A DNA stretch of 64,000 bases from a virus (Duplodnaviria; Caudoviricetes): the IMG/VR virus record IMGVR_UViG_3300025450_001231; one strand, given 5' to 3'. Of this stretch, positions 1 to 64,000 are shown piece after piece (the stretch's first letter is position 1; every line of letters starts with the position of its first letter). The notes below the pieces were generated by a model, which was given only the letters and a program-made list of their open reading frames with translations, did no database searches and had not been told where the DNA came from. A program made the translations under genes and the position numbers.

Positions 1-1
1 A

Positions 2-3000
2 GGATCTGCTAGTACAGTACCGGGTCCACAAGGCGCGCAAGGACCAACTGGTGTACAAGGACCGACTGGAGTACAGGGTGCACAAGGACCAACTGGAGCA
101 CAAGGACCACAAGGACCACAAGGAGCCGCTAGTACAGTACCAGGACCGCAAGGACCACAAGGACCAAGTGGTCCACAAGGAGCCAAAGGATCGAGCGGAA
201 CTGGAGAATGGTATCCTGTATTTTCTGCAGGTGTATCTACTCCGTATGTTCAAGTAACACCTTATGTATTTGAAAATTATAGTTCAACTCCAGAAACTTG
301 GACAGATTTTATATATTCACAAGAAGGATATGTCAACGGAGCATATACTGCAATAACTCCAATGATTCAAACTTCTCCAAATGTTACATATACTATGTCA
401 GCTGGTTTAACCAGTACTAGTAGTATAACCACAGTAAATGGTTTAGTTGGATCACCTGCAAATAGATATATCTATATAGATTATGGTTTTTACATAACAA
501 CAATCAATAATACCGGAACTTATCTTATATACGAAGACGGCGCATATCAAAATGTCACCGGTTCTTGGTCAGCAGGTGATCAGTTGTATGTAATCTATGA
601 TGGATTAAATGTCAAGTATTATTATAATAATACTTTGCTTAGAACAGTTGCTAGAAGCACAGGTTCTGCACTACATCATGCTGGTACATTAAAAAGTATC
701 TATGCATCTTATCGTGCTTCTTTTGGACCTAACGGACAGTCAGGAGTACAAGGACCACAAGGACCACAAGGCCCTGGCGGGACAGGACCACAAGGACCAC
801 AAGGACCACAAGGCCCAAGCGGAGTAAATGGAACATCAGGCACACAAGGACCGCAAGGCCCACAGGGACCCAGTGGATTAAATGGACCACAAGGCCCTAG
901 TGGATTGAACGGCCCACAGGGACCACAAGGCCCAAGCGGAGTAAATGGAACATCAGGTACACAAGGTCCACAGGGACCCAGCGGATTAAATGGACCACAA
1001 GGACCCAGCGGATTAAATGGGCCACAAGGACCGCAAGGACCGCAAGGACCAAATTTAACTGTTAGCAGTACTGCACCTGTCTCGCCTAATGTGGGTGCAC
1101 TATGGTACAATACCAATACCGGACGAACTTATGTTTACTACGAATCTTATTGGATAGATTCTAGTCCAGCCGAAATGGGACCACAAGGTCCAACAGGACC
1201 ACAAGGTAGTGCTGGTAATACAGGACCACAAGGGCCTACTGGAGCGCAAGGACCACAAGGACCAACCGGAATAGGCCAGCAGGGATTGCAAGGACCACAA
1301 GGTGTACAAGGACCGCAAGGAACTATCGGAGCAAGTACTTGGACACCTGTAGTTAATCCTGCTGGAAATGCGATTCAAAATGGTACAAATGGATTACAAT
1401 ATACCAAAGTAGCAGGAACCAATGGAACGTTTGATACACAGGTATACAGTACCCAAGGTTTTGTTTTTGGTGCGTATGCAAGTGCCAGTGGATCAAGTAC
1501 TACTAACTTAGGTATAATGTTTGGTCTAAGCCAACAATCAAACCTAACACTCAATGTAGGATCTCCTCCTACACCTGCAATTGATTATGCTTGGTATTTT
1601 ATTAATGGTACTGCTATTGTATATTTGAATGGAACTAATAGCGGTACACAATTTTCATATATTACATCAGATGTATTTACAATAACATACGATGGGTCTA
1701 TTGTAAAATTCTTTAAGAATGGAGCGTTTGTTTATTCTGTAGCAAGATACCCTGGTGCTGCTTTGTACTTTGCAAGTAGCTTTACCACATTGAACGGAAG
1801 TCTTACTAACATAGCTTTTGGACCAATGGGCACAGGCCCACAAGGACCGAGCGGTGTGCAAGGACCAACAGGACCACAAGGAGTACAAGGACCAACTGGA
1901 GTACAAGGACCACAAGGACCAAGCGGTCCTCAAGGAGCAGCTAGTTCAGTTCCTGGGCCACAAGGACCGACTGGGATAGGTGTACAAGGACCGCAAGGAC
2001 CGCAAGGACCACAAGGAACCGTTGGACCACAAGGACCATCGGGTCCAACCGGAATAGGTGTACAAGGACCACAAGGAACCGTCGGACCACAAGGACCGCA
2101 AGGACCACAGGGAGCTGCTGGTAACGGATCTTGGACACCTGTATTAGTTGGCACCGCAGTCCAAAGTACTGCAACTGGCTATACTTTTAGCAAAACAGGT
2201 GCAACTACTGCTTACGACAGTCAGGTATATAGTGTACAAGGATATCTAAACGGATCTTTTTGTTCTTTTAGAGCATCTAACACTAATCAAATATATGCTG
2301 GCTTGGCGTTGAATCCTACTAGCGGGACTACTCCTGCATATTTAGACTACGGATTTAATTTAGTTGGTGGCACATATATAATATATGAAGCTGGTTCTAG
2401 CACTGGTATTACTGGTTCTTATAGTGTTGGTACCATATTTACAATAGTGTTTGATGGTAGTTATGTAAGATATTATGTAAGTGGATCGAGTTCGTCTGTC
2501 AGAACTGTAGCGGCTTCTCTTCCATATAATCCATTGTATTTTAGTGCTTTATTTTACCAACAAAATTCAGGAATAAACTCTGCGGTGTTTGGCGCAGTTG
2601 CACAAGGCGCAGCCGGGCCACAAGGCCCACAAGGACCAATTGGTCCTATAGGAAATATTGGACCACAAGGCCCAGCAGGCCCAGCAGGCCCATCCGGGCC
2701 ACAAGGCCCAGCAGGTAGTGCAGGTCCAGCAGGTAGTGCAGGTCCAGCAGGTCCAGCAGGTAGTACAGGTCCAGCAGGCCCAGCAGGTAGTACAGGTCCA
2801 GCAGGCCCAGCTGGTCCAGGTCTTCCTACAGGAGGAACAGCTGGGCAAGTATTATTCAAAAATAGTACTACAAATTATGATTACTCATGGAGTTACGGTG
2901 CAAGAGACTATATTGCTGTTGCTTGCGGTGACGAGTCTACACCAATCGCAACAGGTTCACCTGTTGTGATGACTTTTAGGTTGCCTTTTGCTTGTACATT

Positions 3001-3268
3001 ATGGCAACCGCCTAGAATAAGTGTAACTACCCCATTATACTCCGGAACTTTGACTGTTGGAATAATATATGGTGGCCCAGTTGCTCCCACTCAGTTATGT
3101 AGTATTAGCCCAACTTTGTCTACTGGTGCTTACAGTTCAGTCGGGCAAAATACCCAATTGGCAGTAACATCATTGCCCGATGATACACAAATTCAAATTC
3201 AATTGACAGGAACGTACAGCGGTGGAGCTGGCTTAAAAGTAATACTTTATATACAAAAAAATGCTTAA
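2..3268 (+). CDS. Collagen-like phage fibre protein, 5'-truncated: five collagen segments, three copies of a ~165 aa beta-rich (ConA/SPRY-like) domain, and a C-terminal globular domain
   Basis: The frame is open from position 2 ([11 protein letters not shown]...) into the listed ORF at 362, so 362 is not the true start. The repeated domain W(Y/T)PV...Y..QG(Y/F)..G...(I/L)DY.....(F)TI.(Y/F)DG..V.(Y/F)(Y/F) lies at ~205-725, ~1335-1825 and ~2125-2600. The C-terminal motif is [15 protein letters not shown]...GAGLKVILY. Confidence 0.85.
725..1050 (+). repeat. Collagen-like (Gly-X-Y)n run, CAAGGACCA-based
   Basis: GPQ/GPS runs with repeated GPSG(L/V)NG units. Confidence 0.9.
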
Positions 3269-3295
3269 CAATTAACCAATTTATCACAATTTATT

Positions 3296-4297
3296 ATGTC
3301 ATTTTTTATTCAATTTTATGTACCATCCTCAAAAGGGGAAGCAGTATTTAATGTGCCCGGCACATACACTTTTGTGATGCCTAGTTATATAAACACAATA
3401 TCTGCATTTCTTGTTGGAGGCGGCGGTGCCGGAGGCGCCTCATATGGCGGCGGCGGTGGCGGCGGCGGTACAACTTACGGAAATAATATGTTTGTATCTC
3501 CAGGGGCAACTTATACAGTTGTAGTAGGTGCAGGTGGGGCAAATAGTGGCCAAGCTGGTGGTAATAGTTCTCTTTCTGTAAGCGGAACGACTACACCTAT
3601 GCTAAAAGCATATGGTGGTAGCGGTGGATCTGCAGGAAACAGCAATACTGGTGGTGGGGGTGGCGGTGCTGGTGGGTTTCGTTCGACAATGGAGGCAGGG
3701 GGAGTAGGGGGCAGTGCACTTAATTGTGGTTCACCTAGTTTATTTTCAGGTGGTGCAGGAGGTATAGGGGGGACCAACAATCCTCCTAATTTATGTTTTG
3801 GGTATCAATACACTTGTGGCAATGGCTCATCAGGTGGTGCAGGAGGAAGCGGCAATAGTCAAAACAATGGCGGTTCTCCAGGAAAATGGAACTCTGGTAT
3901 GGAATATTACTTTAATGTTCTTGGATATGATGAGAGCTTCTATTATTATGTTACTGCCGGCGGCGCAGCAGCTTGGAATGGTGCACAAGGAGGTGGAGGA
4001 ATAGGTCTTCATGGGAATATAGCCCCAGCAGGTCAACATGGTTTAACCAATAATCCTGCTAGTACGAACATCGTCAAAGGCGGTACTTATTGGCAGCTAA
4101 ATGGAGCCTCTGGCGGTGGATCTGGGGGATGCAATGGTGGCAGCTCTTGTGGGGGTAACTACGGCGGCGGTGGCGCTGGAAGTTATGCTGGAGGTTCTGG
4201 GGGCAGTGGAGCAGTTAAGATTGTTTACCCCGGGGGCACTAGAAAATATCCATATACTGATGTGGCAACTGACTATCATATACTAATAACTAACTAA
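3296..4297 (+). CDS. Glycine-rich domain protein, putative fibre-tip adhesin
   Basis: 333 aa. It has PGTYTFVMP...AFLVGGGGAGG followed by many polyglycine tracts separated by variable loops, and ends GGSGAVKIVY. It is homologous by eye to the C-terminal domain of 32895..36278. Confidence 0.75.
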   Translation: MSFFIQFYVPSSKGEAVFNVPGTYTFVMPSYINTISAFLVGGGGAGGASYGGGGGGGGTTYGNNMFVSPGATYTVVVGAGGANSGQAGGNSSLSVSGTTTPMLKAYGGSGGSAGNSNTGGGGGGAGGFRSTMEAGGVGGSALNCGSPSLFSGGAGGIGGTNNPPNLCFGYQYTCGNGSSGGAGGSGNSQNNGGSPGKWNSGMEYYFNVLGYDESFYYYVTAGGAAAWNGAQGGGGIGLHGNIAPAGQHGLTNNPASTNIVKGGTYWQLNGASGGGSGGCNGGSSCGGNYGGGGAGSYAGGSGGSGAVKIVYPGGTRKYPYTDVATDYHILITN

Positions 4298-4355: not shown

Positions 4356-7300
4356 ATGACACAACAGATAATTAACCTTGGAACCGGTCCAAATACACAG
4401 ACCGGAGAGACAATCCTAACTGCATTCGTTAAAGTTAACGACAACTTTACCGAACTTTATGCGGCTCTCCAAGGTAACGGCGCCGATAATCTAATCGGCA
4501 ACACCATAACAGCCAATAATTTTGTTACAACTGGTAACATCAGAACTGGTAATATTGCAGCTTATGGTAATATTGCTACAATAGGCAATATTATAGCCAG
4601 CGGATTCTTCTATCCCAACGGTAAATCAATACTAGGTACAGATGCAATCAACACAGATTTGTTGCCGTTAACGGGCAACATATTCAGTATAGGTTCCAAT
4701 GCATATCCATGGGCTGCAGCAACCATTGCTAATAGTATTACATTAGGTGGTCATGTATTAGAGTTTAACGCTCAAAATATTCTAACAGTTGATGGAATAC
4801 CATTTAGAGGTAGCTACAGTGATGCTAACGTAGCTGCTTATTTGCCATACTATGGCGGTCCCATAACAGTATCAAATATCTATATTAACAGTACTGATAT
4901 TACAACGGACGGGACACATTTATTTGTCAATGGTTCGTTAGTAGCTGGTAATTACAATAATTCTAATGTGGCAGCCTTTTTACCTACCTATGGTGGACAG
5001 ATATCTGCTTCTAATATTGATCTCGGCGGATACGGTATTACAACAGACGGTAATACAATATATCTAAATGGCAAGTCGATTCAAAGTAATTATGGTGATG
5101 CAAATGTAAGAGCACTGTTACCGACTTATTCCGGAAACTTAAATAGTATCAACGGAATTACAGCATCTAACCTTACTGCCAATAATGCCAGTATTAGTAA
5201 TGTACTTTATTTAGATACCAGTACAATCACTGCAGTAAAAAATACATTATATGTAAACGGTGTACCAATTACTGGTACGTATACTAACTTATCGGTTGCC
5301 GCTTATTTAGATACTTACTTGCCAGCACATAGTGGTAACTTAAATGCTATCGACAACTTAAATGCCAATACTGCAAACATCTACCAAACATTATATTTGA
5401 ATGGATCGGCGCTAACGGTTGTTAATAATCAATTGTTTGCAAACGGTGTGCCCATTACTGAAACATACAGTAATACAAACGTTCATTCATACTTGCCAAC
5501 ATATACTGGTACACTAAACAATTTAACAAGTGTTAGCAGTAATGTATTAGTAGCAACAGCCAATTTGGTATTAGATGGTGCAACACTAACAGTAGTAAAT
5601 AATCAACTATACAGTAACGGGATTCCAATTTCTGGTACTTATAGCAATGCCAACGTAGCACAGTACTTGCCAATTTATTTTGGCAATATGAATTTAGTTA
5701 ATAACTTAACTGCTAATATTGTTGAAACAGTTAAAAATCTGGTATTGGATTCTACCAGCGAAGTTGTTGGTAATATTATTCCTAGTTTAGATTTAACTTA
5801 TACCTTAGGTAATACCACAAATAGATTTAAGAGTTTATATGTCGGTGGCAATACAATTTATATTGGCAATCAATCGATATCAAGCAATGCTACACAAATT
5901 ACTCTTAGTAATGCTGTTAGCACAGGCAATGGTTTCTTTGGCGGCAATGTTTACATTTCTGGATTTGCAAATGTAACTGGAGATATTACTGCCAATAATA
6001 TAAATGCCAATACAAATATTCTTGCTGGAGGCAAAGTTGCAGTAGTTGGTACCATTGATGCGGATAGTAACATCACTGGCGCAAATTTAATCAGTAACGG
6101 CACAGTTAGTACTGGTACCTTAACAGTTGCAACAACTGCAACTGTAACTGGCAATGCTACTGTTGGAAACTTAATTACTTCAGGTAATATAAGCGGCGTT
6201 AATACATTATTTGCCAATGCTGCTAATTTAATTGGAAATCTTACTGCTGGTAATTTAACTTCTGCGGGTACGTTGACAATTGGTACAATAACTGCCAATG
6301 GCAATATAACCACAACTGGATCAATTAATTCAACTGGTGGCATAACCGGCGGAAATATTACCAGTAATGGATATGTTAGTACATCTACTTTATATGTTGC
6401 ATCTACTGCAAATATTGCAAGCAATTTAACTGCTGGTAATATATCTACCTTAGGTAATGTAGCTGCTGGTTACTTTATCGGTAATGGTAGTTTATTAACA
6501 GGAATTGATGCTACACAAATTAGATACCAATTGTTATCTAATGTAAAAGTTGGCAGTGATGGAAATATTACATTTAGTACTAATACTAATCCCAACACCG
6601 CAGTATTCAGTGATCAAGCATTTACATTCTACAGAGATTTATTTGTAGATGGTAATATTGTTGCTACCGGAAGTATTACTGCAAACGGTAATTTAATATT
6701 AGGAAATGCTGCAACTGACACAGTTCAGTTCGGAGCAGAAGTTAGCAGTGATATACTACCTAGTCTAACACTCACTTATAATTTAGGTAGTCCCGCTAAC
6801 CAATGGAAAGGTATATATGCAGGTACTGCTAATGTTACTACATTAACTGCAAGCGGAAATATAACTGCTGGTAATATTGCTACTAACGGTTCTGCAAATA
6901 TCGGAACATTAACAGTAACCAATACTGCCACAATATCAGGTAATTTGTCGGCAGGTAATATTTCTACACTGGGCAATATTACTGCTAACTCAGTTACTGC
7001 AACTGGTAACATATCTGCAGCGTACTTTAGTGGAACTTTTGTTGGTAATATTGTTAGTAATAACTTATTAGGCAATACAATTCCTTTAGGAACTCCTATA
7101 GATCAAAACTTTGTAAATGGTGCAATTGGTACTTGGACCAGTACCACTTCGGTTACTGATGCTATTGACCAATTAAACGAAGCAATGCTTAACATACAGG
7201 CCAACACATATGTTAAGAGCACAAGTTTTATTGCTACTCCTACCAGTGGTGGCGCAGGCACATTGGTTACATTAACCATTAGTTCAGTAGGAAACCCAAA

Positions 7301-12400: not shown

Positions 12401-13417
12401 AACGGTGTCAGTATATTAACAGGAATTGTTGCAGGCGGAACAAATTACAGCAATGCTAATGTATTTTCCTATCTAGGATCAAACAGCAATGTTGCTATAA
12501 CTACCACTGGAAATGTGACTGCTAATAATTTTATAGGTAACGGTGCAAATTTAACCGGCTTAAATTATAACCAGACTGGTAATATCTATGGAACACAACC
12601 CAATGTAACATTAGTCGCTGGTAATTATTCATATGTTTTTGATAACACAGGTAATTTGACTATTCCTTCAGGCGGGGACATTTTGTTGCCTACTGCTAAT
12701 TCTACAATTACAATGACCGGTAATATTGTTGTTGGTAATGTTATTGCTGCTGGATCAAGCGGACCCAAGACACGTTTCTTATGGGACACTTGGCAAGCTA
12801 ATTCTACATCGGCATTGAGCTCATTTACTCCAAGTGGTACCATTGGTGGTAATGCTACCTGGGATAGCACACAAGCATATGGATTAAAACTAACCACAAC
12901 AAGTACTTCACAGTCTGGCTACATTAACTGGAACAGTAGTACAATCAATTATAACTATGATATGGTTATAACTGCTAGTATTGGTGCTAGTGGAGGAACC
13001 GGTGCAGATGGACAATGGATCTACTTTGGATCTAATGCTGCCATCACAGGTAATCCCGGTAATACCACCACTTATGGTGGCATTGCGGTTATGAACCATT
13101 ATTATAGTAGTTCAAGTCAGTTTGAAGTTTATGTTGGCGGTACACAAATTAATATTCCCTATATTGGTAACGGTAACTATGTAACATCTGGAGTTACATT
13201 ATGGAACGCCAGTTACACCAGTTTCTATAATCTAACACTGAAAATACGCAAGATACAGAACGGCAACCGTATGTTAGAAGTATATATCAATGAAATATAT
13301 CAAGGATCAGTCAACATTGGTAGTTGGACTCCATCTGGAAATTACTTTGGTGTAGCGGCATACACTGGAGGATCCACTGCTCAAAACTGGGTACGTCAAC
13401 TAAAGATAGATTGGTAA
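9470..13417 (+). CDS. Fibre protein (cassette gene B1): conserved N-terminal domain, beta shaft, collagen segment, C-terminal lectin-like domain
   Basis: 1315 aa. The start overlaps the upstream stop (TAATG at 9468-9472). The N-terminus [15 protein letters not shown] is shared with 28991. Collagen lies at ~11990-12275, and the aromatic-rich beta C-terminus resembles ConA-type lectins. Confidence 0.8.
11990..12275 (+). repeat. Collagen-like run containing five near-exact GGACCACAAGGACCAACAGGGACTGCC units
   Basis: Directly visible tandem DNA repeats, some with an extra 9-nt GGACCACAA. Confidence 0.9.
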
Positions 13418-36278: not shown

Positions 36279-36286
36279 TATAAATA
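36279..36286 (+). promoter_or_regulatory. T4 late promoter consensus TATAAATA
   Basis: Exact 8-mer directly after the stop of 32895, 20 nt before the ATG at 36307. Confidence 0.7.
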
Positions 36287-36306
36287 CCCAATAGCCGAAG
36301 AAAAAT

Positions 36307-42273: not shown

Positions 42274-42279
42274 ACAAGT

Positions 42280-42285
42280 TAAATA
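42280..42285 (+). promoter_or_regulatory. T4-late-type promoter core TAAATA
   Basis: 5 nt before the ATG at 42291. Confidence 0.55.
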
Positions 42286-42290
42286 ATATT

Positions 42291-42635: not shown

Positions 42636-42643
42636 AAATACGA

Positions 42644-42649
42644 TAAATA
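42644..42649 (+). promoter_or_regulatory. T4-late-type promoter core TAAATA
   Basis: gaTAAATA lies 21 nt before the ATG at 42671. Confidence 0.6.
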
Positions 42650-42670
42650 CTCATTAATATGGGTTAACTA

Positions 42671-54300: not shown

Positions 54301-57300
54301 TGGAACATTTGCAACACAAAATGATGGTACATTATGGACCTGGGGATATGGTGTTCCTGCAGGTGCATTAGGTTTAGGTGTTGCTACTAGTTATAGCAGT
54401 CCTAAACAAATAGGTTCGTCGGCTGGATGGGTATCGATATTTGGTAATGGTGGTACTAGAATAGTAAGTGCTGTTGCACCTTCCGTACCTAACCTGACAG
54501 CTACTGTAGTCGGCGGAGTTGGAGTGGCAGTTGGTGTAAAATTTGGAAATGTTACCGGTGCTGCCGGCGGCATTACCACTGTGGTCACAAGTAACCCAGG
54601 TGGAATTACTGCAACTTTAACCACTAGTTCATTATATGGTACAGTTACAGTAACTGGATTAACACTCAATACATCATACTCATTTACAGCCGTGGCAACA
54701 AATGCCATAGGATCAAGTAATACAAGTGCTGCAACTTCCTCCGTTTACTATGCTAATACAGCACCTTGTGTTCCAACAATTAATAGCGCCGTACAAGTTG
54801 ATACAAATACTGCAGGAGTTACTTACTTTGCACCGCTAAACAATGGCGGACAACCAATATTATACTATACTGCTACAAGCAGTCCAGGTGGAATTACTGC
54901 GACATTGAGTCAGTCAGGTAGTGGAACAATTACAATAGCAGGTTTAACAACAAATGTTTCTTATACATTCACAGTTACTGCTACCAATAGTATCGGCACA
55001 AGTAATGCTAGCCCAGCTAGCCCCAACTTAACTATAGTAACTACTACAGTACCTGGTACACCAACAGTTACTGCAACACAAACTGCAGCAAATACTGCAG
55101 TAGTTTCGTTTACACAACCTACTAACGGTAATGCTACAATACAGTACTATACAATTGTTGGATCGTCTTCGTCGTATACTGCTACACTAAGCCAGTCTGG
55201 CGCAGGTACTGTTACAGTAACCGGTTTAGCTACCGCTACTCCGTATACATTCACAGTTACTGCTACTAACTCAGTTGGTGCTGGCACTGGCGGTACCAGC
55301 AGCGGATTAACACTAGGAACTCCGCAATTCTTATGGTCGTGGGGTTGCGGTACTGCTTCAGGTATAGGTGTTTCAACAAATTATAGTAGCCCAGTTCAAG
55401 CTGGTAGTGCGCTAAATTGGAATATGATAGTCGGTAGTAGTGGTACTCAAACATCTGCAGGTATCAAACAAGATGGTACATTGTGGATGTGGGGCTACAA
55501 CACCTACGGACAATTAGGATTATCCGCAACAGGAACGGTTCTTAATATTACTCAAGTTGGTGCACTTACCAATTGGAAACAAGTTGCAGTTGGACCAACT
55601 GAGACTATTGCTGTAAAAACCGACGGTACATTGTGGAGTTGGGGACAAGCTCTTAACGGGCAGTTAGGTCTGAACACCAGCATTCTTAATAACTATTCTA
55701 GTCCAAAACAAATCGGTGCAGGAACAAATTGGGCATTTGCGTCAATGGGATCACAACACGCACTTGCAATTCAAACCAATGGTACATTGTGGACTTGGGG
55801 ACAAAACAACTATGGACAACTAGGATTGAATAATACTTCAACTTACAGTAGTCCAAAGCAAGTTGGAGCATTAACCAATTGGTTGAAGGCATCTGCGGCC
55901 GGTTACAATGTGGTCGCACTTAAAACCGACGGAACATTATGGGCCTGGGGAATTGGTACTAGTTATCAGCTAGGTCGAGGAAATACTTCTTCTTATATTA
56001 GTCCAAAACAAGTTGGTGCATTGACTACTTGGGCATCTTTTGCGAATGGATGGCAGTTTGTATTGGCTACTAAAACCGACGGAACATTGTGGAGTTGGGG
56101 AACTGGCTCATACGGACAATTAGGATTGAATAGTACATCGGCCGCTTCAAGTCCAACACAAGTTGGTACAGGAACAAATTGGAGCGTATTTAACCCAAAT
56201 CAAGGTGAAAATCTTCAACAGTACATGACTGCAACGAAGACCGACGGAACATTATGGAGTTGGGGACGTAATTATCAAGGTGCATTGGGACTAAATCAGT
56301 CAACAATCACATTGTACTCAAGTCCAAAGCAAGTTGGTTCATTAACTACTTGGCTCAGTACAGACGGTACTTCGGCCTTGGCAACAGTGCCAGCTGGTGC
56401 ACCTTCAGCGCCAGCAGTTAGTAACGTTGCAGTTATCTCAGGAGTAGGAGTAGGCGTAACATATACAGTTCCTGCAAGCACCAACGGATCGGCAATTATA
56501 AAATATATTGCAACTAGTACCCCAGGTGGAATTACAGCCACAGTAACTCAAGCAACTGCTGGTACAATTACAGTAACTGGATTAACTGGTGGAGCAACTT
56601 ACACATTTACTGTTACTGCAGTCAACGGAGGGGGCGGCAACACTAGTGTAGCATCCGGTAACGTAACTTATACTGCAATTGCACCATCTGCACCTGCTGC
56701 AGTCACTGCAAATGTAATAAGTCCAAATACTGCAACAGTAAGCTTTACTGCACCTTCTTCTAGCGGTGGGGCACAAATACTTGGTTATATAGTTTCTTCT
56801 ATTAATTCAAGTACTATTTCAAGTGTTACTTTAGCACAATCATTCCCAGGTACTGTTACTTTAACTGGTTTGACAAACGGCACCACATATACATTCTCTG
56901 TAGCTGCATTTAACGGTAGTGCAACTGGACTAGCCACTAGTGCTAATGCTAGTGTTGGTGCACCAGGCATACCAACAATAGGTACAGCGGTTTCTATGGG
57001 TACAACAACTGCTAATGTATCATTTACTGCACCAATTAACACTGGTGGTTACCCAATTACCAGCTATGTGGCTACAAGTAGTCCAGGTGGAATCACTGCT
57101 ACATTGAGCCAAGCAGGCGCTGGAACTATTACTATAACCGGTTTGTCTTCAAGCACTTACTATTCATTTGCAGTACAAGCTGTTAACAGCTATGGAACTA
57201 GTAATGTTAGTGCTTCGAGTAATAGCATATATACTCAAGGAAAACCGTATGCACCTATTATTGGTACAGCAACTGTATTAGGAAATTCTTCAGCGGTAGT

Positions 57301-60300
57301 TACATACTGTGCACCAACATTTAACGGTGGATTTGCAATTACCAGCTATGTGGCTACAAGTAGTCCAGGTGGAATCACTGCTACATTGAGCCAAGCAGGC
57401 GCTGGAACTATTACTATAACTGGATTAACAACAAATACTGCTTATACATTTACAGTGCAAGCTGTTAACAGCTATGGAGCTGGTCCTATAAGTGGCTCAA
57501 CTCCTAAAGTAACACCAATTAACTCTTACTTGTGGACCTGGGGACCCGGTACCTACGGTAGTAATGCATTAAATAATATTCTTTCATATTCAACTCCAAG
57601 GCAAGTCGGCGCACTTTCTGGATGGCTTCAAGTATCCGGTAGTTACGGATGGAATGGAGCAGCTATTAAAGCCGACGGAACATTATGGACCTGGGGGTAT
57701 AATGTTACGGGAGGCCTTGGGTTAAGTAACATTATCAATTACTCAAGTCCCAAACAAGTTGGTGCATTGACCAATTGGGCACAGATCGCAATGACCCCTA
57801 ACGGTGTTGCTGCAATTAAAACTGACGGAACCTTGTGGACCTGGGGATACAACAGTTTTTATCAGCTGGGTCTAAGTAATAGTACTTGGTATTCAAGTCC
57901 AAAACAAGTTGGTGCATTAACCAATTGGAAATCAGTATCTATGGGTAATATGGCCATGGCAGCTGTTAAAACAGACGGTACACTATGGACGGTAGGCAAT
58001 AACACCTATGGTGGTCTAGGTCTGGGCGACACTACTTATAGAAAGAGTCCTACTCAAGTCGGTTTACTAACTAATTGGTTACAGGTTGCGGCATCCGGTT
58101 ATCATGTGCTAGGATTAAAGACAGATGGCACGTTCTGGGGTTGGGGTGCTCAAAGCGGATGGGGTATAATTGGTGTTAGCGGTACAGGCGCATATTCTAG
58201 TCCAAAACAAGTTGGTGCATTAACCAATTGGAAAACATTTGGCACAACCAATTCTGCTGCTTTTGGTATTAAAACAGATGGTACACTTTGGAGTTGGGGC
58301 CTTAACTCTAGTGGTCAATTGGGATTAAATAACCTTACATCATATTCTAGTCCAAAACAAGTTGGTTCATTAACCAATTGGAAATCGGTAACAAACGACA
58401 TAGGAAGCAGTAATAATAATGCTCCGTCTTTTGTGACTGCTGTAAAAACTGATGGTACTCTTTGGTCTTGGGGAGCAGGCACAAGCGGGTATTTGGGATT
58501 AGGCAATGTAACTGGATATAGTTCACCAAAACAAATCGGCTCGAGTACTTCTTGGATTATGGCATCAGGATCGATGGCTATTAGTTCGTCACCGGCGGGA
58601 CCAGCAGCTGCACCAACTATAGGTGCAGCTACAAATGTTACTGGGGTAGGCGTTACAGTAGCATATACTGCAAGTTCAAGCGATAACGGATCGGCAATTA
58701 CAAGTTATGTTGCAACTAGTACCCCAAGCGGAATTACTGCTACAGTAACTCAAACAACATCAGGTACGATTACAGTAACTGGATTAACAACTGGAACTAG
58801 TTATACGTTTACAGTTGCCGCAGTTACTGGTGCAGGTCTTGGTAATGCCAGTGCATCATCTAGCGCAGTTACATATCTAGCAAATGCACCATCAGCACCA
58901 ACAGGTGTTACAGCCAATGCAATATCATTAACTAGTGCTACAGTTGCATTTACTGCACCTGCAAACGGCGGATCGCCGATCTTGAGTTACAAACTTGCTG
59001 GTGCACCGGGATGTATTGCTGCCACAATAAGTCAGGCTACATCAGGTACATTTACTATATCAGGATTAACTACTGGTACTAGATACTCATTTACAGTAGC
59101 TGCAACAAATGGAGCAGGAACAAGTACTAATTCTTCAGCAAGCTCAATTAGTTTAGGCGTACCTTGCGTACCTACTGGAGTAACTGGAACACCAACTGGT
59201 TCGTCTACTGCTACAGTAAGCTATATTGCACCAGCTAGTAATGGCGGAACACCGATTACAAATTATGTTGCAACTGCAAATGTAGGCGGAATTACTGCTA
59301 CTGTAACACAAGCATCTTCTGGTACAATTACAGTAACTGGATTGGGAACAAAAGCTTCTTACACATTCACAGTTACTGCAATTAACAGTTACGGAACAAG
59401 TAATGCAAGTACCCCAACCGGTACAGTAACTACATTTGGCGTACCTTGTGCACCAGTTATTTGCGGAGCTATACCAATTCTTGGCGCAACTTCTGCGGCA
59501 GTTATATATACTGCTCCTGCCAATGGCGGTTCACCGATTACAAAATATGTTGCAACTGCAAATGTAGGCGGAATTACTGCTACATTAAGTCAAGCAGGAT
59601 CGGGTACAGTTACTGTATCTGGCTTGACAAACGGCACATACTATTCGTTCACACTACAAGCAATTAATATTGCAGGCACAAGCTCATCGAGCTCACCAAG
59701 TGGTGCAGTTGCTCCAGGTGTCGGCTATTTGTGGAGTTGGGGTCAAAACAACTACGGGCAGACCGGTTCCAATGCTTTAGTAACTTATTCTAGTCCTGTA
59801 CAAATAGGTGCCGGTAGTAATTGGAAAATGGTATCTGTTGGTTCATGTTTTAGTAGCGCAGCTATCAAATTTGATGGAACATTATGGACCTGGGGATATA
59901 ATGGTCAAGGAAACTTGGGATTCAGTAATAAAACAAATTATTCTAGTCCAAAACAAGTCGGTGCATTAACTAATTGGAGTACAGTAGTTATGCGTACTAA
60001 TAATGCTACTGCAATTAAAACTGACGGAACATTGTGGACTTGGGGTTACAATGGTGGCTATGATTTAGGATTAGGCAATGGTACATATTATTCAAGTCCT
60101 AAACAGGTTGGCGCACTAACTACTTGGAGTTCAGTAGATTCAGACGGTAGCACTACAGTAGCTATCAAAACTGACGGAACAATATGGGCTTGGGGTCAGG
60201 GCGGTAACGGACAAATTGGAGTAAGTACTACAGCAAATTACAGTAGTCCAAAACAAATCGGTGTATTAACTAATTGGAAACAAGTTTCTGTCAATGATGC

Positions 60301-62689
60301 AGCTGTTTTTGCAATTAAAACCGACGGCACACTGTGGGCTTGGGGTAATAATTACACTGGTCTATTAGGACTAAACTCACAAACAGCTAACTATAGTAGT
60401 CCAAAACAAGTTGGTGCATTGACTAACTGGGGCCAATTACAAATTTCTGGATCTTCTTCAGGTAGTTCAACTGGCGCAATTAAAACTGACGGAACATTGT
60501 GGACTTGGGGCACTGGCGTTAACGGTGCTTTGGGTCTAAACAACCTTACTAGTTATTCAAGTCCAAAACAAGTCGGCGCATTGACAAATTGGCTTCAACT
60601 TGCTTCTTTAAGCCAAGTTGTATTAGGAATGGTTGCAATCAAGAATAACGGAACAATGTGGTCTTGGGGTACTAATAGTGCACCTGGTCGCTTGGGATTG
60701 AATAATGCTACTAGCTATTCAAGTCCAAAACAAATTGGTGCAGGAACAACTTGGACATATGTTGCAGGAACTATGGCTCTTGGTATCGCTACAGGATCTC
60801 TACCTCCTTGCGCTCCTAGTATAAGTGCTACAAATGTTGGCGGAGTTGGCGTAGCAATAACAGCCAACGCAGTAGTCAATAACGGAAGTCCAACTAAGGT
60901 AGTGGTCACTAGTACACCAGGCGGGCTAACTGCAACATTCACTGCACTAGGCGGAACAGTTACAATAACCGGATTTACATCGGGCACAACATATACATTT
61001 ACTCCAGTTGCAACTAATAGCTTCGGATCTACCACTGGTTCAAATAGTTTAGCAACTTATTCTGCAGTATTACCAGGTGCACCTGGTATTGGTTTAGCCA
61101 AGGCAATCACATTGTGTAGTGCAACTGTAATATTTGGCTCGCCAAGTAACGGCGGAAGCCCAATACTGTACTACACTGCCACAAGTAATCCAGGTAGTGT
61201 GACTGGTACACTAAGTCAGGCAGGCAGCGGAACAATCACTGTAACTGGTTTGACCGCAGGTACTAGATACACATTCACAGTTACTGCAACTAACGCAATT
61301 GGCACTGGTAATTCCAGTACACCTACAACATCAATCAGTGTTGGTGCACCATGTGCTCCAACTATCTGCACAGCAACCGCAACAACTACAACAGCAAATG
61401 TACCGTATACTGCACCGATAAACAATGGTGGATCAACAATTACAAGTTATGTAGCTACAAGTAATCCAGGTGGTGTGACTGGTACACTAAGTCAGGCAGG
61501 CAGCGGAACAATTTCTGTTTCTGGATTGTCAGTAGGGGGTAGTTACACATTCACAGTTGTTGCTGTCAACAGTTATGGAACTAGTAACGCAAGTGCTAAT
61601 AGTAACAGTGTAAGTATACCGTTAACACAAGGTAACTTATATATTTGGGGTAGTGCTGCTTCCGGCCAGTTAGGTCTAAACAATGCAACAGCATATTCGA
61701 CTCCTGTACAGGTTGGAGGTAGTAATACTTGGGCACAAACAATTTTAGCAGGTAACTGTCACTCATTTGCGTTAGATTCAGCTGGACATTTGTGGGCGTG
61801 GGGTCTAAATAGTTCTGGACAGTTAGGTTTAGCTAATACAACTAATTATTCAAGTCCGAAACAAGTTGGCTCAAATACTTGGAAAGTAATTGCCGGCGGT
61901 GACGCTTTTACAATCGGTATTACAACCAGCGGAGCACTGTTTAGTTGGGGTACACAATCTCAGGGACAATTAGGGTTAAACACTACTTCGGGTACTTATA
62001 ATAGTCCAAAACAAATCGGCGCATTGACTACTTGGTTGACAGTATCATCCGGACAATACATGACGCAAGCTCTTAAAACTGACGGTACATTATGGTTTTG
62101 GGGAGACGGCCGATTCTATGGACAAAGCGGACTCGGATTCCTAGGCAGTGTTTCTAGTCCTATCATGGTTGGCGGAGTGAATACTTGGAAATCTGTTAGC
62201 GTAAATTATTTCCACGTTGCAGCAATTCAAACCAATGGAACTTTGTGGACTTGGGGATTTGGCGGCTTTGGTGAAGGCGGCAGAGGAGTTACCGGAAACA
62301 CATCTAGTCCCCAACAGGTTGGTTCTTTGACCAATTGGGCACAGGTAGCATCTGGCAGAGATCACATAATTGCAGTCAAGACTGACGGAACATTATGGTC
62401 GTTTGGATACGGCTATGGCGGCGTACTAGGATTAGGTAATACTACAAGTTACTCAAGTCCCAAACAAGTAGGAGCATTAACTACTTGGAAAGCAGTTGCT
62501 GCTTCGTCAAATGGATATAACAGCTATGCAACAACAGGCACTGCATTATATGCTTGGGGAAATAACGGCAACAGTGTATTGGGAATCGGTAATGCTACTA
62601 GCTATAGTTCACCAAAACAAGTCGGATCTGCAACTCAATGGATTGGTGTATCTGCAGGACCAAATTCTGCAGCAGGTATTCATATATAA
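51350..62689 (+). CDS. Giant (3779 aa) FN3 + RCC1/BLIP-II-like beta-propeller protein
   Basis: One N-terminal Ig-like unit and about 20 FN3-like units (YTFTVTA.N..G). Five blocks of seven RCC1-like repeats (KTDGTLW.WG....LG.....YSSPKQVGALTNW) lie at ~53415-54445, 55330-56370, 57525-58570, 59725-60770 and 61630-62689. Confidence 0.88.
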   Translation: MSRLSSVSSSVGGSTSTAAATNQNVAVLATNPPSNLIPPSITGTAQVNQTLTANVGTWSANTISYAYQWVNSGTGNINSATNSTYTVQTTDLGYTLDCIIIATNSYGNSSTASNLSSAVVPGVPLAPTIGTATDIDGSSATVSFTAPTNNGGATITKYVATANVGGVTSTITQAGSGTITVTGLSVATSYTFTVAAVNSVGTSPSSSQSNAITTGAKPCAPTIGSASELTPTSAAVSYTAPTFNGGSTILYYTATANVGGITATLSTSSSGTITVTGLTTGNSYTFTVTATNSIGTSNASAASNSLTEATAPGVPTSVTATATGANTANVAYTAPISNGGIAINYYVATSNVGNITATLSTSTSGTINVTGLTSGASYTFTVKASNSYATSNASAASNGITEWTVPAAPTIGTATATSANTANLTYTAPVNNGGTTITSYVATSNVGGITATLSTSSSGTFSITGLTSGASYTFTVTAINSVGTSNASAASNGITEWAVPGAPTIGNATVANATAVSVAYTAPASNGGTAILYYTASSNIGNITATLSTTSSGTITVAGLTTNVSYTFTVTATNTVGTGNSSAASNTVTPVVNNGPCAPIIGYVAATSANSAIVTYTAPASNNGATISSYITTSNVGGITATVSTSTSGTITVTGLTSGTYYSFTVQAVNANGTSAASAASAPIAPGVGYLWVWGGQNNVGQLGTNNQTVYSSPVQLGAGSNWKMESITDSASGAVKFDGTLWTWGYNNYGMLGLSNTTSYSSPKQVGALTNWSSVITRFNTVTALKTDGTIWAWGYGGLGALGLNNLTSYSSPKQVGALTNWTAISTDGYTTFAINSLGQLWVWGNNGNGQLGLNNANNYSSPKQIGTSTNWKQMSTYNASVIGLKTDGTIWSWGNNNWGQLGLNNSFQTYSSPVQVGTLTNWKQVIMNNSVGGGTKTDNTLWMWGYNGTGQLGLNNVNNYSSPKQVGLSTSWALLTPSFNVTGTFATQNDGTLWTWGYGVPAGALGLGVATSYSSPKQIGSSAGWVSIFGNGGTRIVSAVAPSVPNLTATVVGGVGVAVGVKFGNVTGAAGGITTVVTSNPGGITATLTTSSLYGTVTVTGLTLNTSYSFTAVATNAIGSSNTSAATSSVYYANTAPCVPTINSAVQVDTNTAGVTYFAPLNNGGQPILYYTATSSPGGITATLSQSGSGTITIAGLTTNVSYTFTVTATNSIGTSNASPASPNLTIVTTTVPGTPTVTATQTAANTAVVSFTQPTNGNATIQYYTIVGSSSSYTATLSQSGAGTVTVTGLATATPYTFTVTATNSVGAGTGGTSSGLTLGTPQFLWSWGCGTASGIGVSTNYSSPVQAGSALNWNMIVGSSGTQTSAGIKQDGTLWMWGYNTYGQLGLSATGTVLNITQVGALTNWKQVAVGPTETIAVKTDGTLWSWGQALNGQLGLNTSILNNYSSPKQIGAGTNWAFASMGSQHALAIQTNGTLWTWGQNNYGQLGLNNTSTYSSPKQVGALTNWLKASAAGYNVVALKTDGTLWAWGIGTSYQLGRGNTSSYISPKQVGALTTWASFANGWQFVLATKTDGTLWSWGTGSYGQLGLNSTSAASSPTQVGTGTNWSVFNPNQGENLQQYMTATKTDGTLWSWGRNYQGALGLNQSTITLYSSPKQVGSLTTWLSTDGTSALATVPAGAPSAPAVSNVAVISGVGVGVTYTVPASTNGSAIIKYIATSTPGGITATVTQATAGTITVTGLTGGATYTFTVTAVNGGGGNTSVASGNVTYTAIAPSAPAAVTANVISPNTATVSFTAPSSSGGAQILGYIVSSINSSTISSVTLAQSFPGTVTLTGLTNGTTYTFSVAAFNGSATGLATSANASVGAPGIPTIGTAVSMGTTTANVSFTAPINTGGYPITSYVATSSPGGITATLSQAGAGTITITGLSSSTYYSFAVQAVNSYGTSNVSASSNSIYTQGKPYAPIIGTATVLGNSSAVVTYCAPTFNGGFAITSYVATSSPGGITATLSQAGAGTITITGLTTNTAYTFTVQAVNSYGAGPISGSTPKVTPINSYLWTWGPGTYGSNALNNILSYSTPRQVGALSGWLQVSGSYGWNGAAIKADGTLWTWGYNVTGGLGLSNIINYSSPKQVGALTNWAQIAMTPNGVAAIKTDGTLWTWGYNSFYQLGLSNSTWYSSPKQVGALTNWKSVSMGNMAMAAVKTDGTLWTVGNNTYGGLGLGDTTYRKSPTQVGLLTNWLQVAASGYHVLGLKTDGTFWGWGAQSGWGIIGVSGTGAYSSPKQVGALTNWKTFGTTNSAAFGIKTDGTLWSWGLNSSGQLGLNNLTSYSSPKQVGSLTNWKSVTNDIGSSNNNAPSFVTAVKTDGTLWSWGAGTSGYLGLGNVTGYSSPKQIGSSTSWIMASGSMAISSSPAGPAAAPTIGAATNVTGVGVTVAYTASSSDNGSAITSYVATSTPSGITATVTQTTSGTITVTGLTTGTSYTFTVAAVTGAGLGNASASSSAVTYLANAPSAPTGVTANAISLTSATVAFTAPANGGSPILSYKLAGAPGCIAATISQATSGTFTISGLTTGTRYSFTVAATNGAGTSTNSSASSISLGVPCVPTGVTGTPTGSSTATVSYIAPASNGGTPITNYVATANVGGITATVTQASSGTITVTGLGTKASYTFTVTAINSYGTSNASTPTGTVTTFGVPCAPVICGAIPILGATSAAVIYTAPANGGSPITKYVATANVGGITATLSQAGSGTVTVSGLTNGTYYSFTLQAINIAGTSSSSSPSGAVAPGVGYLWSWGQNNYGQTGSNALVTYSSPVQIGAGSNWKMVSVGSCFSSAAIKFDGTLWTWGYNGQGNLGFSNKTNYSSPKQVGALTNWSTVVMRTNNATAIKTDGTLWTWGYNGGYDLGLGNGTYYSSPKQVGALTTWSSVDSDGSTTVAIKTDGTIWAWGQGGNGQIGVSTTANYSSPKQIGVLTNWKQVSVNDAAVFAIKTDGTLWAWGNNYTGLLGLNSQTANYSSPKQVGALTNWGQLQISGSSSGSSTGAIKTDGTLWTWGTGVNGALGLNNLTSYSSPKQVGALTNWLQLASLSQVVLGMVAIKNNGTMWSWGTNSAPGRLGLNNATSYSSPKQIGAGTTWTYVAGTMALGIATGSLPPCAPSISATNVGGVGVAITANAVVNNGSPTKVVVTSTPGGLTATFTALGGTVTITGFTSGTTYTFTPVATNSFGSTTGSNSLATYSAVLPGAPGIGLAKAITLCSATVIFGSPSNGGSPILYYTATSNPGSVTGTLSQAGSGTITVTGLTAGTRYTFTVTATNAIGTGNSSTPTTSISVGAPCAPTICTATATTTTANVPYTAPINNGGSTITSYVATSNPGGVTGTLSQAGSGTISVSGLSVGGSYTFTVVAVNSYGTSNASANSNSVSIPLTQGNLYIWGSAASGQLGLNNATAYSTPVQVGGSNTWAQTILAGNCHSFALDSAGHLWAWGLNSSGQLGLANTTNYSSPKQVGSNTWKVIAGGDAFTIGITTSGALFSWGTQSQGQLGLNTTSGTYNSPKQIGALTTWLTVSSGQYMTQALKTDGTLWFWGDGRFYGQSGLGFLGSVSSPIMVGGVNTWKSVSVNYFHVAAIQTNGTLWTWGFGGFGEGGRGVTGNTSSPQQVGSLTNWAQVASGRDHIIAVKTDGTLWSFGYGYGGVLGLGNTTSYSSPKQVGALTTWKAVAASSNGYNSYATTGTALYAWGNNGNSVLGIGNATSYSSPKQVGSATQWIGVSAGPNSAAGIHI
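57054..57420 (+). repeat. Exact 85-bp duplication between adjacent FN3 units
   Basis: 57054-57138 is identical to 57336-57420, while the flanks diverge. Confidence 0.85.
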
Positions 62690-62711
62690 TTGAATACTGT
62701 TTCAATTCAAG

Positions 62712-62744
62712 ATTTATAACCTGTAGCGATACAGGTTATAAATA
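62712..62744 (+). promoter_or_regulatory. 14-bp perfect hairpin (GCGA loop) whose 3' arm contains the late promoter TATAAATA (62737-62744)
   Basis: ATTTATAACCTGTA-GCGA-TACAGGTTATAAAT. The ATG follows 5 nt after the box. Confidence 0.7.
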
Positions 62745-62749
62745 TTTGT

Positions 62750-64000
62750 ATGAAAAAAACACTACACTTCTTATCGGGAATCCCCCGCAGCGGATCTACG
62801 GTTTTGGCCGCTATATTAAACCAAAATCCTGCTACTCATGTGTCGACTACGTCTGGGCTAGTTCATGCACTTGACGGTTTAGCAAATACTTGGTTCAGTC
62901 AAGGATTGCTTAACGAAAATGACCCTAACCGAACAAAACTAGCAGAAACAATGCGTGGAATGATCGATGCATTCTACGAAGATACTGATAAAAAAATAGT
63001 AATTGACAAAGGCAGAGGTTGGCCTATACCTGTTATTATGCAGGCGATGACACAGGTCTTAGGGGCCAAACCTAAAATTATTGCCACAGTTCGTCCAGTT
63101 CCTGATTGTATGGCTAGTTTTGTTAGAGTCGCAAAACCCAAAGACCTTGATATGTTTATGTATGAAGGCCAATTAGCTGATCATCTAAGAGCAGCCTACA
63201 TCAGTTTACAAACAGGGTATGAAGCAATGCCCGAATGTTTTTTATTTGTAGAATACGACAAATTAATTGCCGATCCTAAAAAAGAACTGCAACGAATACA
63301 TAAGTTTTTAGGACTTAAACCATTCAAATACAATTTTAGTAATATTGATGGATCCACTGTAAAAGAAGACGACGAAAATCTACACGGTTACGAAGGTATG
63401 CACGATATTAAACCAGCGCTAGCACGTCAACATACCGACGACCCAAAAGTAGTATTAAGTTACCATTACAATCAATTTTGCCAGCCAGAATTTTGGAGTG
63501 ACGGTAAAAGAACTACTCCGACCTTAGATGATCTAGACCTTCAAGTAGCTGCAGGAAAAATCGGAGATTTTGCCGAAGGATGGCGATTAGCACAAAAATT
63601 AGAAAAAGAAAGACCTGGCGATCATAGAGCTGCGTACAACAAAAGTTGGTATCTGCTTAGACAAGGGAAAATACTCGAAGGCTATACTGTCATGAATCGA
63701 GGACGTTTTTGTGGTATTATTGGAGATAGACTTCCAGACACACCTGCACCAGAATGGGATGGAAAATCTAAAGGTACAATATTATTGTACTGTGATCATG
63801 GATTAGGCGACCAAATACATCAAGTTAGGTATGCAAAAGACTTAGCTGCACGTGGCAATAAAGTTGTTGTATGTTGCACTGGTATGTTAGCTAGTTTATT
63901 CAAAGATGTCGAAGGAGTTAGCGCAGTAGTACAACATGGTGCAGAATTTGGTGTTTATCACGATTTTTGGACATTTGCTATGGTAGCTCCGGGCCTATTA
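62750..64000 (+). CDS. Sulfotransferase-domain + TPR-like + glycosyltransferase (GT9-like) fusion, 3'-truncated
   Basis: Hand translation gives 417 open codons. MKKTLHFLSGIPRSGSTVLAAILNQNP is the PAPS 5'-phosphosulfate loop, VRPVPDCMAS the R-x7-S 3'-phosphate motif, followed by VEYDKLIADP. Then come a helical segment (AEGWRLAQKLEKE..AAYNKSWYLLRQG) and EWDGKSKGTILLYCDHGLGDQIHQVRY, which resembles the W.G...ILL..EQGLGD.IQF.RY motif of TPR-GT9-like proteins. Confidence 0.82.
   Translation, partial: MKKTLHFLSGIPRSGSTVLAAILNQNPATHVSTTSGLVHALDGLANTWFSQGLLNENDPNRTKLAETMRGMIDAFYEDTDKKIVIDKGRGWPIPVIMQAMTQVLGAKPKIIATVRPVPDCMASFVRVAKPKDLDMFMYEGQLADHLRAAYISLQTGYEAMPECFLFVEYDKLIADPKKELQRIHKFLGLKPFKYNFSNIDGSTVKEDDENLHGYEGMHDIKPALARQHTDDPKVVLSYHYNQFCQPEFWSDGKRTTPTLDDLDLQVAAGKIGDFAEGWRLAQKLEKERPGDHRAAYNKSWYLLRQGKILEGYTVMNRGRFCGIIGDRLPDTPAPEWDGKSKGTILLYCDHGLGDQIHQVRYAKDLAARGNKVVVCCTGMLASLFKDVEGVSAVVQHGAEFGVYHDFWTFAMVAPGLL

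Follow-up and report, generated by a model that had tools for sequence, protein, structure and literature searches.

A greatly enlarged island of candidate adhesion-fibre genes and a sulfotransferase-glycosyltransferase in a freshwater jumbo phage

The gene array and its phage context

A 64,000-nucleotide stretch of the virus record IMGVR_UViG_3300025450_001231 (Duplodnaviria; Caudoviricetes), hereafter the window, was analyzed for the long array of fibre-like genes that fills it. The + strand carries 16 open reading frames (ORFs) of 164 to 3,779 amino acids (aa) each, all co-oriented, from position 2 to position 62689, and a 17th ORF, which encodes a sulfotransferase, runs from 62750 to the window end. 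The 16 ORFs amount to about 20,600 aa in the window and to 21,274 aa once ORF1 is completed leftward; on the contig that extends the window, ORF1 runs 682 aa beyond the left edge and has a full length of 1,770 aa. A first-pass annotation of the same DNA had described 16 co-oriented structural-type genes of about 20,000 aa in total, continuing past the left edge and followed by a sulfotransferase-glycosyltransferase. Both descriptions held, the second through Pfam for the sulfotransferase half and through a structure model for the GT-B half. Among the modules that it had named, collagen, FN3, LamG, RCC1, polyglycine and Ig-like domains were recovered with Pfam, and PKD was seen only below threshold (PKD_4, 18.5 bits against a cut-off of 27). 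Judging from sequence, we consider it likely that the locus belongs to a jumbo myophage and is a hypervariable island encoding virion adhesion fibres that are expressed late.

Identical ORF2 and ORF16 proteins were present on 12 to 13 contigs from JGI, ENA and Logan assemblies, and 13 freshwater runs contained at least half of the sampled words from window positions 36001-46000, thereby indicating that the array is not an assembly artefact. The only large gap in the array, 397 nt between ORF13 and ORF14, is occupied by a 114-aa ORF (42291-42635, + strand) with a He_PIG-like motif (TGLTL..G.ITGTPT), which was missing from the earlier gene count. A sister strain (L093:13444-14214; JGI 3300013094) has one gene more, which encodes a 256-aa LamG protein and is situated between the capsid gene and ORF1; its ORF1 and ORF2 encode 1,768 and 324 aa, respectively. 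These differences represent strain-level gene gain or loss within the island.

No match was obtained when 50 kb of the window were compared by megablast with 50,697 phage records, and the flanking genes were reached via contigs carrying exact window proteins. To the left of ORF1 lie, in order, three small genes and the genes for the Gp23 capsid protein, the scaffold, the Peptidase_S77 prohead protease and Portal_T4, and further left, beyond the portal, are the baseplate hub, gp46/gp47, a 232-aa late sigma factor homologue and gp25. The 232-aa protein is 48% identical to the late-transcription sigma factor of Pseudomonas phage PA5oct (gp346; gp55-like). To the right of the array, about 9.6 kb of modification genes precede a NUDIX gene, which is followed by T4-gp15, an opposite-strand homologue of the PA5oct virion protein gp320, gp13 and a 1,085-aa sheath. 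The gene order around the capsid and neck genes is that of PA5oct and Pectobacterium phage CBB. In addition, the capsid protein is 64-69% identical to those of 287-469 kb jumbo isolates (Vibrio 2.275.O, Sinorhizobium Phosso, PA5oct, GAP32 and CBB) and 78-92% identical to those of IMG/VR contigs of up to 374 kb; the related contigs in IMG/VR number more than 600. Thus, gene order and capsid identity identify the source, at the level of sequence comparison, as a freshwater Rak2/PA5oct-like jumbo myophage on a distant branch of the T4 superfamily. The phage origin proposed in the first-pass annotation is therefore retained, and its T4-type assignment in the proper sense is not. The contig read here is 175,765 bp long, one index block lists a contig of 0.2-1 Mb, and relatives have 318-374 kb.

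Because the flanks consist of T4-type head, neck, tail and late-sigma genes, and not of the cellular or nucleocytoplasmic large DNA virus genes that would have spoken for another source, the phage origin is settled. An alternative explanation is a cellular or giant eukaryotic virus locus, or a set of secreted adhesins that are not part of the virion. Collagen, FN3, LamG and RCC1 domains are indeed widespread in cellular surface proteins and mimivirus fibrils, and ORF12 has a hydrophobic N-terminal stretch. However, both flanks are syntenic with isolated jumbo phages, which already contradicts a cellular or giant-virus origin, and the remaining ORFs show no signal-peptide-like N-termini by eye. 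We regard this explanation as highly improbable. Mimivirus has collagen-like surface fibres and its own 4-amino-6-deoxy-sugar pathway; the likeness of its glycosylated fibrils to the island is by analogy only, because mimivirus is a eukaryotic giant virus, no homology was shown and the phage flanks exclude such an origin.

Architecture of the fibre proteins

Pfam Collagen was detected in seven genes: ORF1 (2-3268), of which the window holds the C-terminal 1,088 of 1,770 aa and which starts 2,044 nt left of the window; ORF4 (9470-13417); ORF6 (14164-15039); ORF10 (25221-28988); ORF11 (28991-32890, 1,299 aa); ORF14 (42671-46435, 1,254 aa); and ORF15 (46474-51300). ORF12 (32895-36278), with a short run of 30 residues, is the eighth collagen gene. 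The array contains 725 G-X-Y triplets in runs of up to 270 residues. Pro occupies 58% of the X positions, and the Y position is taken by Gln (50%), Thr (21%) and Ser (11%), with Pro outside the eight commonest Y residues (under ~1%). This composition, with Pro in X, Gln, Thr or Ser in Y and hardly any Pro in Y, marks the runs as predicted collagen of the bacterial or phage type and not of the animal hydroxyproline type. Known phage and bacterial collagens (the PHROG family 'collagen like minor tail' and an E. coli O157 prophage, PMC3368898) likewise have G-P-Q and G-P-T triplets, no Pro in Y and a trimerising C-terminal domain, which is predicted here for ORF6. The island differs from them in scale, with eight genes, 2,175 collagen residues in total, 513 of them in ORF11, and up to 819 in one protein (ORF1, in 18 runs).

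The first-pass annotation had interpreted these modules as the domain toolkit of animal extracellular matrix. This interpretation was not upheld, since Pro is nearly absent from the Y position and the PHROG matches showed that LamG, Ig/FN3 and collagen modules are established phage-fibre parts; the resemblance is an analogy only. LamG-type lectin domains have also been described on jumbo-phage fibres (PMC7824862). Two 2-oxoglutarate (2OG) oxygenase genes with weak likeness to prolyl hydroxylases follow the sugar genes downstream of the array. Prolyl hydroxylation of the collagen by these enzymes was considered and is unlikely, because Y-position Pro is near absent and the prolyl hydroxylase match is weak (E = 0.24). 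A literature search on phage collagen hydroxylases found nothing relevant.

ORF6 encodes a short fibre of 291 aa with an 'FP..P..G..Y..W' N-terminus, 37 G-X-Y triplets and a globular C-terminal domain. It was predicted to form a homotrimer, with an ipSAE of 0.89 for three copies against 0.00 for the best control. In a calibration with two copies, 21 of 30 solved homo-pairs and none of 23 single chains reached this score, whereas the ORF6 job used three copies. The runs agreed on at least 91% of contacts at a pLDDT of at least 75, and the interface comprised the collagen run and the C-terminal domain. Because collagen helices are similar to complexes that have already been solved, part of the score may be recall by the predictor; the C-terminal domain, however, also contributes to the interface. 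For ORF2 (3296-4297; 333 aa, 29% Gly), a candidate fibre-tip or adhesin protein with a Gly_rich_2 match, the model had a pLDDT of 68 and a pTM of 0.72. Its best Foldseek matches were the cyanophage Pam3 fiber and the mycobacteriophage Bxb1 tail tip, followed by the glycine-rich domain of ALK/LTK, thereby indicating that the 'polyglycine module' is a known fibre-tip fold.

The other binding-type modules were also located with Pfam. Laminin_G_3, a ConA-like lectin fold, was found in ORF5 (13419-14135, 238 aa) and in ORF15, a collagen fibre of 1,608 aa with two LamG domains and a phrog_5906 C-terminus. ORF12 (1,127 aa) contains an Ig-like He_PIG domain above cut-off, four FN3 domains and a C-terminal Gly_rich_2 domain. 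ORF16 (51350-62689), the largest protein at 3,779 aa, combines 20 FN3 domains with five seven-bladed RCC1 propellers at residues ~685-1031, 1319-1685, 2052-2419, 2785-3152 and 3419-3779, interleaved with each other. The propeller bounds were taken from the gaps between FN3 domains and checked by BLAST; jackhmmer seeded with RCC1 drifted into FN3.

Other stalks are built from repeats without collagen. ORF8 (15949-24627) is a repetitive shaft protein of 2,892 aa with at least 25 repeats of ~52 aa, and ORF13 (36307-42273), a shaft of 1,988 aa, has about 15 tandem repeats of 100 aa. These repeats were resolved by DNA repeat finding and jackhmmer, and protein self-BLAST for internal repeats gave nothing. 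Searches of the 50,697 phage records with tblastn returned one trivial match for ORF8 and none for ORF13, tblastn of the ORF8 N-terminus gave no match, sequence searches of the PDB with ORF3, ORF8 and ORF13 found nothing, and ORF13 had no relative in IMG/VR. ORF3 (4356-9470) is a non-collagen fibre of 1,704 aa whose C-terminal ~570 aa match phrog_8578, as does the C-terminal domain of the 1,255-aa ORF10. Two small genes complete the array. ORF7 (15039-15782, ~247 aa) is rich in Ser, Thr and Gly; it had been listed from a TTG at 15009, overlapping ORF6 by 31 nt, and the more likely start is the ATG at 15039, which overlaps the ORF6 stop codon (TGATG). ORF9 (24682-25176) is acidic and Gly-poor, has 164 aa and would be, at a guess, a fibre assembly factor.

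The N-termini of the fibres fall into at least six classes: ORF4/11, ORF8/13, ORF6/14/15, ORF3, ORF1 and ORF10. Besides a phrog_9417 domain at its N-terminus, ORF4 (1,315 aa) has shaft repeats, a C-terminal domain and a short run of collagen, and its N-terminal domain is 40% identical to that of ORF11. The same domain is part of genes labelled 'tail protein' in jumbo siphophages of Caulobacter and Brevundimonas, in Salicola SCTP-2 and in Atu_ph07, a hairy Agrobacterium phage. The N-terminal 88 aa of ORF8 are common to ORF13, and ORF14 begins with an 'FPSSP..G' motif. ORF3 matches cyanophage baseplate-wedge/tail-fibre connector proteins over its first 43 aa, and this motif is also present in slot genes of two relatives (G006 and G008). 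In addition, modules at 38-67% identity are common to ORF3/4, 4/8, 4/11, 8/13, 8/10/11/14, 14/15, 3/10 and 12/16, a patchwork that would be expected from duplication followed by shuffling.

These N-termini bear on where the fibres might be attached. The first-pass annotation had proposed a dense hairy coat of head and tail fibres, with multi-host binding, adhesion to particles or shielding among its possible roles, and both the coat and these roles are conjectural. One possibility is a single branched tail-fibre apparatus at the baseplate, as in RaK2 and phiKp24, with no coat over the head and sheath. The connector-like N-terminus of ORF3, the 'tail protein' label of the ORF4/11 domain in other phages, the match of the ORF2 fold to tail-tip and fibre chains, and the 14 fibres borne by the phiKp24 baseplate (PMC9700779) are consistent with such an apparatus. 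However, no ORF contains T4gp10-like docking or branching domains by Pfam, the N-terminal classes are at least six and unrelated, the island directly follows the capsid gene, and the clade members phAPEC6 and CBB are hairy on the sheath, phAPEC6 also on the capsid. A baseplate-only arrangement is therefore conceivable and, in our judgment, less likely than not.

Virions with many fibres or 'hairs' have already been described in this clade, namely for phAPEC6, CBB and phiKp24. The filaments of phAPEC6 sit at three sheath rings and on the capsid, and the phAPEC6 paper leaves the role of the hairs for elucidation; CBB bears 119-nm whiskers, and the genes for them are not assigned. Collagen is not mentioned in the papers on the phAPEC6 and CBB hairs. 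The hyperbranched systems of phiKp24, RaK2, CBA120 and G7C resemble the island in that one jumbo phage carries many receptor-binding proteins, and those of the phiKp24 type also in their short N-terminal attachment modules and variable distal parts (PMC9700779). In contrast, phiKp24- and CBA120-type proteins are beta-helical capsule depolymerases that dock via T4gp10-like domains, whereas the island has stalks of collagen or repeat shafts and far larger proteins. Neither T4gp10-like docking domains nor beta-helix depolymerase domains were matched by Pfam or PHROG in any ORF, and remote homology is possible. The tail sheath of this phage (L089:18375-20585) is unusually large at 1,085 aa; phAPEC6, which is hairy, has a sheath of 97 kDa. 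Fibres could dock on additional sheath domains.

The capsid-to-gp15 slot and late-promoter motifs

The array lies in a slot whose size was taken, in eleven genomes including this phage, as the distance between the stop of the capsid gene and gp15. The Rak2/PA5oct-like isolates PA5oct, CBB, GAP32, phAPEC6 and RaK2 have the same order of gp25/gp55, portal, protease, scaffold, capsid, fibre slot, NUDIX, gp15 and virion protein. The contents of the slot differ, because those of the isolates contain no collagen, RCC1, FN3 or sulfotransferase genes. In PA5oct, the slot has 7.3 kb and one or two genes, with a single 'tail fiber protein H' gene, compared with 76.9 kb and 17 genes in this phage. The slots of nine IMG/VR relatives measured 8.3, 11.4, 14.5, 16.9, 17.9, 20.3, 21.2, 28.2 and 40.2 kb. 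The comparison of locus size across related jumbo phages, which the first-pass annotation had suggested, thus gave 7 to 40 kb in the ten relatives, and the slot of this phage was the largest of the eleven. In CBB, the gene after the capsid gene encodes the tail fibre protein CBB_260, and both CBB_260 and the PA5oct slot protein gp324 were detected in virions by mass spectrometry. The claim that the island encodes virion fibres is supported by these slot proteins together with the collagen stalks, the predicted ORF6 trimer, the fibre and tail-tip folds and the late-promoter boxes described below.

The nearest relative with a long contig (G006) has a capsid protein 89% identical to that of this phage. 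Its downstream sugar genes are 56-83% identical, with only 32% for the acetyltransferase, and the N-termini of ORF1 and ORF3 are the only fibre parts that the two phages have in common. Because the sugar genes are conserved while the fibres differ, the slot appears to be a fast-turnover site of host-contact genes. Among the ten relatives, collagen genes were found only in G006, where they lie in the slot, and in G001, where they lie elsewhere in the genome.

All six copies of the motif ATAAATA in the window are on the + strand. Five of the six copies lie within 45 nt upstream of the starts of ORF10, ORF13, ORF14, ORF16 and ORF17, in zones that make up 1.2% of the window; their positions are 25207, 36279, 42643, 51336 and 62737 (+), 12-28 nt from the gene starts (14 nt for ORF10). 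The T4 late-promoter core TATAAATA is depleted, with two copies in the window compared with about eight in shuffled sequence, and the two form boxes upstream of ORF13 (36279-36286) and ORF17 (62737-62744). This depletion looks like selection against stray T4-type late promoters. The placement of ATAAATA, together with the gp55 homologue in the left flank, points to late transcription of the fibres and the sulfotransferase, probably from T4-type late promoters. Scans for sigma-70 promoters and terminators found sites no commoner than in shuffled sequence, and Rfam and tRNA scans found nothing. No RNA data set was listed as containing the stretches of the window that were queried.

The same data bear on a further explanation, in which the array is a library of alternative host-range cassettes, with few fibres per virion and the rest kept as spare or recombination stock. 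The paralogous N-termini of ORF4/11, ORF8/13 and ORF6/14/15 could compete for sites, and the fast turnover of fibres between close relatives is also compatible with a library. However, every ORF is intact at lengths of up to 3,779 aa, the same array was recovered from many samples, Pfam detected no invertase, reverse transcriptase or other switching gene in the window, and several genes have their own late-type promoter box. We therefore consider a library quite unlikely and favor an island whose fibres would be virion components.

The ORF17 enzyme and its RCC1 cassette

ORF17 (62750-64000) has a full length of 588 aa, of which the first 417 lie in the window. Its N-terminal half is a sulfotransferase by Pfam (Sulfotransfer_3 and _1), and a model with a pLDDT of 91 showed a sulfotransferase half, TPR helices and a GT-B domain. 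In Foldseek searches, the N-terminal half was nearest to the human tyrosylprotein sulfotransferases TPST1/2 (E = 4e-7 for TPST2), and the C-terminal half was nearest to SPY (SPINDLY), OGT and the adhesin heptosyltransferase TibC (E = 7e-5 to 2e-4), with WaaC and WaaF also matched. Identity to these structural matches was 9-19% overall and 9-13% for the glycosyltransferase (GT) half. Motifs for binding the sulfate donor 3'-phosphoadenosine 5'-phosphosulfate (PAPS) can be read in the sequence: GIPRSGST, with the 5'-PSB loop PRSGST, and RPVPDCMAS, the 3'-PB motif (R-x7-S). The folds of the two halves are thus like those of TPST1/2, TibC (GT9) and SPY-OGT (TPR + GT41); a corresponding function is putative, and no such fusion has been characterised before. 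Metagenomic homologues number more than 1,100 at E < 1e-5, the best 120 of them at 71-97% identity, and no isolated phage carries the full 588-aa fusion. The TPR/GT-B half is also found repeated three to six times in tandem in metagenomic proteins of 1,300-3,100 aa (P0174, P0177, P0182 and others).

The genomic neighborhood of the enzyme was examined in 26 loci from ENA and IMG/VR with an orthologue at least 66% identical (L103, L105 and L107-L130; fusion identity 66-97%). RCC1 propeller genes of ~380 aa abut the 588-aa enzyme in all 26. A 130-aa gene usually comes next, and a methyltransferase and a P-loop kinase are often present after it. One locus is on a 361-kb jumbo contig and the others are on contigs of 6-124 kb, most below 70 kb; in one of them, adaptor and tail genes of podovirus type lie just upstream, and another comes from a near-identical strain of this phage. 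Constantly flanked by RCC1 genes on varied contigs, the fusion behaves as a mobile cassette in a tail-fibre position. In this phage, ORF16 and ORF17 are followed by a ~130-aa gene, a methyltransferase and a P-loop kinase (window 51350-64000 and L089:1025-4360), and the ORF16 propellers are 46-56% identical to the stand-alone RCC1 proteins. The identity and the recurrent order indicate that ORF16, ORF17 and the next three genes are a copy of the mobile cassette, with the propellers set on FN3 spacers. Elsewhere, the cassette has two to four separate ~380-aa propeller genes, whereas here five propellers and 20 FN3 domains are joined in one protein at the end of a giant island. No literature on such a phage cassette was found, and searches on phage sulfotransferases and RCC1 proteins brought up no relevant papers.

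Farther downstream, L089:5467-8096 carries genes for a Gmd-like 4,6-dehydratase (scoring 361 bits where the cut-off is 415), a DegT aminotransferase, a NeuD/PglB/VioB acetyltransferase and a WbuC cupin, and the downstream region also encodes GT4- and GT10-like transferases. By sequence, this set is consistent with a GDP-N-acetylperosamine-like pathway. At 230 aa, the DegT aminotransferase is much shorter than the usual ~370 aa, and its gene may be a truncated or split one.

Because both halves of the enzyme are like protein-modifying enzymes and the propeller is its constant neighbor, the propeller is the most likely substrate. A tentative extension, which we think has a modest chance of being right, is that the fibres are self-modified: ORF17 would put sulfate and an N-acetyl-perosamine-like sugar on the ORF16 propellers, with the phage's own genes supplying the donors. 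The sulfate donor would then possibly come from the phage's own kinase, and the Thr/Ser-rich collagen stalks would perhaps be decorated as well. Alternatively, ORF17 and the sugar genes might remodel the host envelope, for exclusion of other phages or for freeing progeny from debris, and leave the fibres untouched. The O-antigen-type character of the Gmd-like dehydratase, DegT, the acetyltransferase, the WbuC cupin and GT4, the likeness of the GT-B half to the lipopolysaccharide heptosyltransferases WaaC and WaaF, and the conservation of the sugar genes while the fibres change are what such remodeling would produce. However, the fusion is always beside RCC1 genes, on unrelated phage backbones and in a tail-fibre position, its nearest folds (TPST, SPY/OGT and TibC) act on proteins, and no membrane segment was predicted in the ORF17 model. 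Envelope remodeling is accordingly rated as rather unlikely.

Several observations weigh against a late-expressed island of virion fibres with its own modifying enzymes. ORF7, ORF8, ORF9 and ORF13 match no family in Pfam or PHROG. When the slot fibres of PA5oct, CBB and Vibrio phage 2.275.O were compared with the island by BLASTP, none matched and likeness was limited to the boundary genes, so that the case for virion presence is one of position and architecture. A full ATAAATA box is present at only five of the 17 gene starts. The nine other relatives lack the cassette, and the sulfotransferases of G006 are different ones, which makes the cassette an add-on and not part of the fibre island as such. 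The 'APS kinase' is a weak P-loop match, and self-supply of PAPS is thus uncertain; the enzymes may also act on host glycans rather than on phage proteins. In G006 (G006:C1:25808-30518; L096), two stand-alone sulfotransferases of 264 and 292 aa, 27-31% identical, take the place of the 588-aa fusion, in the same slot as three collagen fibres. Sulfotransferases thus appear to have been recruited twice next to collagen fibres.

Taken with these points, the preferred interpretation is that the window is a greatly enlarged, variable fibre island in the otherwise fixed slot between the capsid gene and NUDIX/gp15. Its products would be virion-exposed adhesion fibres with stalks of trimeric bacterial-type collagen or of beta repeats, N-terminal attachment modules of at least six kinds, and varied distal binding modules comprising LamG lectin folds, glycine-rich tips, FN3/Ig arrays and RCC1 propellers. 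The array probably grew by duplication and module shuffling and would change far more rapidly than other parts of the genome. ORF16 and the next four genes would be a horizontally mobile cassette that most likely glycosylates and/or sulfates the RCC1 propellers before assembly, the sugar donor probably being drawn from the neighboring nucleotide-sugar pathway. Overall, the fibres would likely serve to attach the virion to hosts or to particle surfaces in a multivalent, broad or reversible manner.

The island is new in its scale, at ten times the size of the PA5oct slot and perhaps a fifth of the genome or more, and in its collagen or repeat stalks in place of depolymerase spikes, its five-propeller ORF16 and its linkage to sulfation and glycosylation genes. 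One expandable slot, from the capsid gene to gp15, would house the fastest-evolving host-contact genes of a widespread aquatic jumbo lineage, and the island shows how very large fibre proteins can be built from few shuffled modules. It also offers concrete candidates for the hair-like fibres of the clade. The abundant RCC1/sulfotransferase-GT cassette could represent a new kind of virion post-translational modification, which, if true, would matter for adsorption, for what becomes of phage particles in lakes and for the engineering of receptor-binding proteins. If the fibres are indeed self-modified, this phage would be the first with a sulfated, glycan-bearing, polyanionic virion, and its fibres would be a candidate molecular basis of the jumbo-phage 'hairs'.

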